Below are positions 10,127 through 12,532 of a stretch of DNA of 12,580 bases, piece after piece. Made by a program: the position numbers and the translations under genes. Position 1 is the first letter of the stretch. The number at the start of each line of letters is the position of its first letter. Origin of the DNA: a virus; UHGV virus genome UHGV-1654074, one strand, 5' to 3'. The notes under the pieces are model-generated. The model was not told the origin of the DNA. It was given only the letters and a program-made list of their open reading frames with translations, and ran no database searches.

Positions 10127-12532
10127 ATGGGTAAAGGCAGCAGTAAGGGGCATACCCCGCGCGAAGCGAAGGACAACCTGAAGTCCACGCAGTTGCTGAG
10201 TGTGATCGATGCCATCAGCGAAGGGCCGGTTGAAGGTCCGGTGGAGGGATTAAAAAGTGTGCTGCTGAACAGTACGCCGGTGCTGGACACTGAGGGGAAT
10301 ACCAACATCTCCGGCGTCACGGTGGTGTTCCGGGCCGGTGAGCAGGAGCAGTCACCGCCGGAGGGATTTGAATCCTCCGGCTCCGAGACGGTGCTGGGTA
10401 CGGAAGTGAAATATGACACGCCGATCACCCGGACCATCACGTCGGCAAACATCGACCGTCTGCGCTTTACCTTCGGTGTACAGGCACTGGTGGAAACCAC
10501 CTCAAAGGGAGACAGGAATCCGTCGGAAGTCCGCCTGCTGGTTCAGATACAGCGTAACGGTGGCTGGGTGACGGAAAAAGACATCACCATTAAGGGCAAA
10601 ACCACCTCGCAGTATCTGGCCTCGGTGGTGGTGGATAACCTGCCGCCGCGCCCGTTCAATATCCGGATGCGCAGGATGACGCCGGACAGCACCACAGACC
10701 AGCTGCAGAACAAAACGCTCTGGTCGTCATACACCGAAATTATCGATGTGAAACAGTGCTACCCGAACACGGCACTGGTCGGCGTGCAGGTGGACTCGGA
10801 GCAGTTCGGCAGCCAGCAGGTGAGCCGTAATTATCATCTGCGCGGGCGTATTCTGCAGGTGCCGTCGAATTATAACCCGCAGACGCGGCAATACAGCGGT
10901 ATCTGGGACGGAACGTTTAAACCGGCATACAGCAACAACATGGCCTGGTGTCTGTGGGATATGCTGACCCATCCACGCTACGGCATGGGGAAACGTCTTG
11001 GTGCGGCGGATGTGGACAAATGGGCGCTGTATGTCATCGGCCAGTACTGCGACCAGTCAGTACCGGACGGCTTTGGCGGCACGGAGCCGCGCATCACCTG
11101 TAATGCATACCTGACCACACAGCGCAAGGCGTGGGATGTGCTCAGTGATTTCTGCTCGGCGATGCGCTGTATGCCGGTATGGAACGGGCAGACGCTGACG
11201 TTCGTGCAGGACCGACCATCAGATAAGGTGTGGACCTATAACCGCAGTAATGTGGTGATGCCGGATGATGGCGCGCCGTTCCGCTACAGCTTCAGCGCCC
11301 TGAAGGACCGCCATAATGCCGTTGAGGTGAACTGGATTGACCCGAACAACGGCTGGGAGACGGCGACAGAGCTTGTTGAAGATACGCAGGCCATTGCCCG
11401 TTACGGTCGTAATGTCACGAAGATGGATGCCTTTGGCTGTACCAGCCGGGGGCAGGCACACCGCGCCGGGCTGTGGCTGATTAAAACAGAACTGCTGGAA
11501 ACGCAGACCGTGGACTTCAGCGTGGGCGCAGAAGGGCTTCGCCATGTGCCGGGCGATGTCATTGAAATCTGCGATGATGACTATGCCGGTATCAGCACCG
11601 GTGGTCGCGTGCTGGCGGTGAACAGCCAGACCCGGACGCTGACGCTCGACCGTGAAATCACGCTGCCATCCTCCGGTACCACGCTGATAAGCCTGGTTGA
11701 CGGAAGTGGTAATCCGGTCAGCGTGGAGGTTCAGTCCGTCACCGACGGACTTAAGGTGAAAGTGAACCGGGTTCCTGACGGCGTTGCAGAATACAGTGTG
11801 TGGGGGCTGAAGTTGCCGACGTTGCGTCAGCGCCTGTTCCGCTGTGTGAGTATCCGTGATAACGATGACGGCACGTATGCCATCACTGCCGTGCAGCATG
11901 TACCGGAAAAAGAAGCCATCGTGGATAACGGGGCGCACTTTGACGGCGACCAGAGCGGCACGGTGAATGGTGTCACGCCGCCAGCGGTGCAGCACCTGAC
12001 CGCCGAAGTCACCGCAGACAGCGGGGAATATCAGGTGCTGGCGCGCTGGGACACGCCGAAGGTGGTGAAGGGCGTGAGCTTCCTGCTCCGTCTGACCGTA
12101 ACAGCGGATGACGGCAGTGAGCGGCTGGTCAGCACGGCCCGGACGACGGAAACCACATACCGCTTCACGCAACTGGCGCTGGGGAACTACAGGCTGACAG
12201 TCCGGGCGGTAAATGCGTGGGGGCAGCAGGGCGATCCGGCATCGGTATCGTTCCGGATTGCCGCACCGGCAGCACCGTCGAGGATTGAGCTGACGCCGGG
12301 CTATTTTCAGATAACCGCCACGCCGCATCTTGCCGTTTATGACCCGACGGTACAGTTTGAGTTCTGGTTCTCGGAAAAGCGGATTACCGATATCAGGCAG
12401 GTTGAAACCACAGCCCGCTATCTTGGTACGGCGCTGTACTGGATAGCCGCCAGTATCAATATCAAACCGGGCCATGATTATTACTTTTATATCCGCAGTG
12501 TGAACACCGTTGGCAAATCGGCATTCGTGGAG
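10127..12532 (+). CDS. J: Central tail fibre / tip attachment protein J homologue, 5' partial: first 802 codons, with no stop codon in the window. The frame runs into the 3' adapter.
   Basis: Not in the ORF track. Manual translation from the ATG at 10127 gives [68 protein letters not shown]... and stays open through ...[17 protein letters not shown] at 12532. This matches lambda gpJ as I recall it. GGAG lies 8 nt upstream of the ATG. Confidence 0.9.

Follow-up and report, generated by a model that had tools for sequence, protein, structure and literature searches.

A 5′-complete, 3′-truncated lambda-type tail-tip gene J at the adapter-capped end of a lambdoid phage contig

The tip protein of the bacteriophage lambda tail, gpJ, comprises 1132 residues, with a C-terminus that sets host specificity and an alpha-helical shaft that begins near residue 809 (PMC11101478, Nat Commun 2024, on the lambda tail and LamB). 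The tail tip is closed by a gpJ trimer. When LamB binds, the shaft is remodelled, the FNIII domains come free and the hub domains rotate outward, after which the gpI plug is loosened and DNA can leave through a channel that has widened to about 3 nm (PMC11101478). Structures of the lambda protein are available as PDB 8IYK, 9E7M and 8XCG. Homologues of the J fragment described below occur in 4626 of 5426 complete Escherichia coli genomes (~85%), with a median of 3 copies per genome and up to 14 places in one genome, and the J module is among the commonest and best-studied gene modules in E. coli. In annotated relatives the genes are ordered as a protease/major-capsid fusion, head completion genes, Z/U/V-like tail genes, G, T, tape measure, M, L, K, I and J, followed by lom and then a side tail fibre gene.

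We analysed a 12,580-nt stretch of the virus genome UHGV-1654074, which we refer to as the window, and which ends before the positions where lom and the side tail fibre gene would be expected. On its plus strand, translation from the ATG at 10127–10129 runs to the window end at 12580 through 818 codons and zero stops, of which the 802 codons at 10127–12532 are of phage origin and the final 16 are encoded by a sequencing adapter. The preliminary description had proposed a continuous plus-strand frame of 802 amino acids from 10127 to the adapter junction, and all of its coordinates are right: translation of this frame (frame 2) shows no stop between 10127 and 12532. An in-frame TGA at 10121–10123 precedes the ATG, which is thus the first possible start, and the ribosome-binding region (10115–10126, +), read directly, contains GGAG at 10115–10118 and GAGGA at 10122–10126 and is the same as that upstream of J in lambda. 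The frame is absent from the program-made list of ORFs because it has no stop codon within the window, as had been supposed; by its own description, the lister leaves out ORFs that run off the source. We interpret 10127–12532 as the 5′ two-thirds of gene J, cut by the adapter, of a lambdoid E. coli phage or prophage with an mEp460/cdtI-like head–tail module and a lambda-type tail, and put the probability of this reading at about 0.97. The gene, encoding the tip attachment protein or central tail fibre, would accordingly be 5′-complete and 3′-truncated, and represented by codons 1–802 of about 1132–1160.

Over residues 1–802 the product aligns without gaps to lambda gpJ (NC_001416, NP_040600.1), with 98.0% amino acid and 96.8% nucleotide identity. 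The 16 substitutions are I35V, D40E, T76S, M169V, G170D, T368V, A519T, V542L, S547N, E560G, E578D, E608D, Q752R, A754T, S762T and T763A. The same residues align gap-free to the lambda ‘tip attachment protein J’ chain in PDB (8iyk_J/9e7m) with 1820 bits and 98.0% identity, and chance could not plausibly produce an open frame of 802 codons whose product is this close (98%) to a protein with a known structure. The NCBIfam model NF049904 (lambda_TipJ) matches over profile positions 1–801 of 1163 with 1792.8 bits, or ~2.2 bits per aligned position over 801, and the score lies under the whole-protein cut-off of 1950 bits only for lack of the final third of the protein, not because of divergence. Four Pfam domains were found, all with E below 1e-33 and far over their cut-offs. 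The hub is represented by Phage-tail_3 (PF13550; residues 330–498, 11114–11620, +; E 1.2e-43) and by its insertion domain FNIII-A_GpJ (PF24801; residues 86–207, 10382–10747, +; E 5.4e-42), and is followed, as a lambda-type J requires, by two Ig/FNIII domains in succession: Ig_J or FNIII-1 (PF24421; residues 610–714, 11954–12268, +; E 6e-42) and Ig_J_second or FNIII-2 (PF24489; residues 716–802, 12272–12532, +; E 5e-34), the latter ending at position 88 of its 105-position profile. The window gene also has in common with lambda J the start codon, the hairpin-bearing spacer upstream and the place after M-L-K-I. On all features open to testing in a copy that lacks its 3′ end, the predicted product belongs to the lambda-type TipJ family, and the gpJ character assigned to it in the preliminary description is borne out by both the alignment to lambda gpJ and the profile searches, as well as by an intact relative that is identical over all 802 residues. 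The name used there is ‘tail fibre gene J’; gpJ is the tail-tip hub together with the central fibre, not a side tail fibre.

The spacer between I and J contains a GC-rich hairpin (AAACCGCC-TGCG-GGCGGTTT; core 10085–10104, extended helix 10073–10121, +) with a fold of −21 kcal/mol and z = −2.5. It is followed by a T-rich stretch and matches lambda except for one base downstream. A simple terminator scan did not call this hairpin, and an Rfam scan of the whole window returned no matches; candidate roles include mRNA stability and translational coupling.

The closest copy of the gene that we found belongs to a prophage of E. coli ETEC1720, whose J (WP_047621258.1, 1137 aa) is intact, is named gpJ by RefSeq and is 100% identical in amino acid sequence to residues 1–802. 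At the DNA level the two differ at 8 of 2406 nt, every one of them at codon position 3 and synonymous. The protein sequence of the fragment is therefore already in RefSeq and holds nothing new, so that its recognition rightly corrects the annotation without amounting to a discovery. J of Escherichia phage 2B8 (VUD36420.1, 1137 aa) shows 99.0% nucleotide and 99.5% amino acid identity over the same residues, and that of mEp460_4F5 (VUD37819.1, 1160 aa) is 97.4% identical in amino acid sequence. A search for an exact DNA match to the window J from which the missing 3′ end might be inferred found none at 100% (best 99.7%), and the 3′ continuation of the gene therefore cannot be assigned. Upstream of J, the ETEC1720 prophage is 98.1% identical to the window but leaves ~220 bp unaligned in the K/I region, and the window therefore represents a different mosaic. 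The unaligned part corresponds to window positions ~9604–9820 (+), comprising the 3′ end of K and the 5′ part of I, and is a small mosaic patch with respect to both the ETEC1720 and Z1322 prophages. In these two prophages, J residues 1–802 show at most 2 amino acid differences from the window (0 in ETEC1720), and gene I is annotated with 215 aa, compared with an ORF of 223 aa in the window.

The pattern of substitutions identifies the plus strand as coding. Differences from lambda fall on codon positions 1, 2 and 3 of the plus frame in the ratio 10/6/62 (62 of 78 at the third), corresponding to 56 synonymous and 16 non-synonymous codon changes, and the pattern is alike against three other references. 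This points to purifying selection on the plus frame, as expected of a coding gene and not of a chance ORF. The ORF list instead contains four minus-strand ORFs across the same region, at 10111–10500, 10543–10734, 10727–10972 and 11219–12568, which the preliminary description had considered spurious, and our results agree with it on all four. None matches a Pfam family, the sole match being at chance level (E 0.06). The three short ORFs overlap a plus-strand gene with a structurally solved product, and 10111–10500 and 10543–10734 have their third codon positions at the same bases as J, so that these frames look ‘conserved’ for free; both were dismissed as genes on account of this overlap and the lack of a family match.

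The fourth, of 449 aa, merits closer consideration as a real overlapping antisense gene inside J. It lies in phase with the J codons, such that its stops would equal the sense codons TTA, CTA and TCA, and its stop-free run of 437 codons within phage sequence (11219–12532, J codons 366–802) exceeds the mean of 178 obtained when the synonymous codons of J were resampled from the codon usage of the window (P about 0.003). Lambda, 2B8, MS1050 and mEp460_4F5 likewise keep this frame open; these four references are, however, 95–99% identical, and their openness is not independent evidence. Moreover, the only start codon of the ORF in the window, the ATG at 12566–12568, lies inside the adapter, and read in the antisense frame the changes are 3 synonymous to 42 non-synonymous against lambda and 5 to 60 against mEp460_4F5. 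Nor do the third positions of J reveal a dip in synonymous rate over the antisense stretch in these two comparisons, the divergence per codon there versus the rest of the gene being 0.087 versus 0.066 for lambda and 0.121 versus 0.102 for mEp460_4F5; against 2B8 and MS1050 it is lower over the antisense stretch, on few differences. In more distant J genes, those of Stx phages with 71–81% amino acid identity, the corresponding stretch contains 2–3 antisense stops while the plus frame stays open for about 900 codons. Taken together, a real antisense gene is extremely improbable, and we conclude that the 437-codon frame is a by-product of codon usage in closely related sequences.

At the right end of the window, phage sequence gives way at 12532/12533 to CTGTCTCTTATACACATCTCCGAGCCCACGAGAC, then ATGCGCAG, then ATCTCG. 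The 48 bases at 12533–12580 match an adapter string exactly and are not biological; we take them to be the Tn5 mosaic end and Nextera i7-side adapter, the 8-base index ATGCGCAG and the first bases of P7. In reverse complement, this adapter also forms the left contig end, positions 1–43 being the reverse complement of 12533–12575, and the resulting 43-base terminal inverted repeat of the contig is purely a library artefact. These ends bear on whether J might be truly truncated or disrupted in the source genome, as in a decayed prophage remnant or after an insertion at codon 802. Remnants of lambdoid prophages are very common in E. coli, at up to 14 places in a genome, and any genomic sequence past nt 12532 lies beyond the window. 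What is joined to codon 802, however, is a synthetic Illumina Nextera adapter with an index and the start of P7, and not genomic or IS DNA; the same adapter interrupts another intact-looking gene at the other contig end; and the 802 codons are free of stops and frameshifts, with all 8 differences from the closest intact gene, of 1137 aa, being synonymous. We therefore regard true truncation as very unlikely. It is the sequencing adapter at the contig end, and not a natural truncation of the gene, that accounts for the absence of the shaft, fibre and receptor-binding domain.

The left end presents a mirror image of the J problem. The ORF listed as 73–1470 (+, 465 aa, ATG) belongs to a frame already open at base 46, just past the adapter, and the peptide encoded by 46–1470 begins at residue 202 of a 675-aa protein of the E. 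coli MS1050 prophage (WP_001136587.1). The listed ORF is a 5′-truncated ClpP-like prohead protease/major capsid fusion gene, a partial gene mistaken for a complete one.

Beyond the hub and the FNIII domains, the window lacks the alpha-helical shaft, the beta-prism central straight fibre and the receptor-binding domain, amounting to about 330–360 residues. The preliminary description had placed the host-range-determining C-terminal part of J outside the window, and this holds on the published domain layout (PMC11101478), since adapter replaces the sequence past codon 802. The position of the cut coincides with a change in the relationship among J alleles. In 60-nt steps, identity of the mEp460-type gene to those of the lambda, 2B8 and MS1050 types is 90–97% as far as J nt 2406, the last base of J in the window, past which it falls to 77%, 50% and then ~27% per 60 nt. 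Among full-length J references, protein identity is 92–100% before the cut and 24–70% after it, and residues 803 to the end of six full-length J proteins are 53–100% identical pairwise. The ETEC1720 and 2B8 proteins have the same C-terminal 335 residues, which show 69% identity to the C-terminus of lambda gpJ, and the C-terminal third of mEp460_4F5 J shows 53–57% identity to that of the lambda and 2B8 types and 71% to that of the MS1050 type. The contig break at codon 802 thus lies at the boundary between FNIII-2 and the alpha-helical shaft and matches the point of allele divergence to the base, and as judged from these alignments the contig end falls on a mosaic junction of a kind already known in J. 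This suggests that the cut at 12532 may reflect a branch of the assembly graph arising from several lambdoid J alleles in the sample, with adapter read-through retained as the contig tip. At the left contig end (window 44) no mosaic junction was found between MS1050 and mEp460_4F5, and the coincidence at the right end could therefore be chance. Because of J mosaicism, the C-terminus of this J is not predictable.

The rest of the window conforms to a lambdoid head–tail module. The prophage of E. coli MS1050 is colinear with all of the sequence between the adapters at 98.2% identity, and mEp460_4F5 is the best full-window match among phages, its 12.5-kb head–tail module being colinear at 97.5% identity. 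The order tape measure-M-L-K-I-J upstream of and including our gene is the same as in these annotated relatives (97.5–98.2% identity). The head genes of the window are not of lambda type, an HK97-like protease/capsid fusion standing in place of C, Nu3, D and E. This context also bears on whether J might derive from a phage-tail-like bacteriocin (F-type tailocin) or another J-like tail-tip system and not from a lambdoid phage. Homologues of that kind are recognisable, among them the F2-pyocin tail fibre and other J-like tip proteins (25vf_A, E 1.7e-126; 9l9p_S; 23gd_D), but these matches are much weaker than the 98–100% identity to lambda-type J, and the window holds head genes, including the protease/major-capsid fusion and a head-closure protein, as well as the whole tail module in lambda order. 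A tailocin origin of J is refuted by this synteny and identity, and we give such a source a negligible chance.

Two further features of the tail module were observed. The tape measure gene (4617–7712, +) has about 1021 aa in the annotation of the 98%-identical MS1050 prophage, compared with 853 aa for lambda H, which, should tail length here follow that of the tape measure as in lambda, would imply a longer tail than lambda has. The programmed −1 frameshift site of G/T (4325–4337, +) reads GGAAAAG (in CCG GAA AAG TCC TGA), as it also does in MS1050 and mEp460_4F5, compared with GGGAAAG in lambda. Since the T frame stays open through this non-canonical heptamer, a predicted G–T fusion reading ...PEK-VLTREM... 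is possible.

Identity, domains, synteny, coding strand and adapter are direct observations on the J fragment, and the mechanism of its product would follow from lambda by homology at 98–100% identity. With the order of the FNIII domains and shaft taken from PMC11101478, a gpJ trimer would form, together with gpL, gpI and gpM, a conical tail-tip hub that closes the tail tube, and the hub would be followed by two FNIII domains, the alpha-helical shaft, the beta-prism central fibre and the C-terminal receptor-binding domain. Receptor binding would remodel the shaft, free the FNIII domains and open the hub, allowing exit of the gpI plug, the tape measure and the DNA. Of these parts, the window encodes the hub domains and FNIII-1, together with nearly the whole of FNIII-2.

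The recognition of J in this contig matters for annotation quality only, as the gene is a textbook lambda-type tail-tip protein gene. Left untrimmed, the adapters hide J, disguise the 5′-cut capsid gene as complete and donate a start codon to the spurious 449-aa antisense ORF. The appropriate annotation is 10127..>12532 as a 3′-partial J CDS and 73–1470 as a 5′-partial capsid gene, with the antisense ORFs dropped and the adapters at 1–43 and 12533–12580 trimmed before annotation or repeat analysis. That the antisense frame constitutes a lineage-restricted overlapping gene is much less likely than an unusual form of the part of J that lies past the cut: the unseen C-terminal third could, although we consider this unlikely, carry a receptor-binding domain unlike those of the sampled types. 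If so, the host range of the source phage may differ from that predicted by the N-terminal identity of its J to those of ETEC1720 and 2B8.
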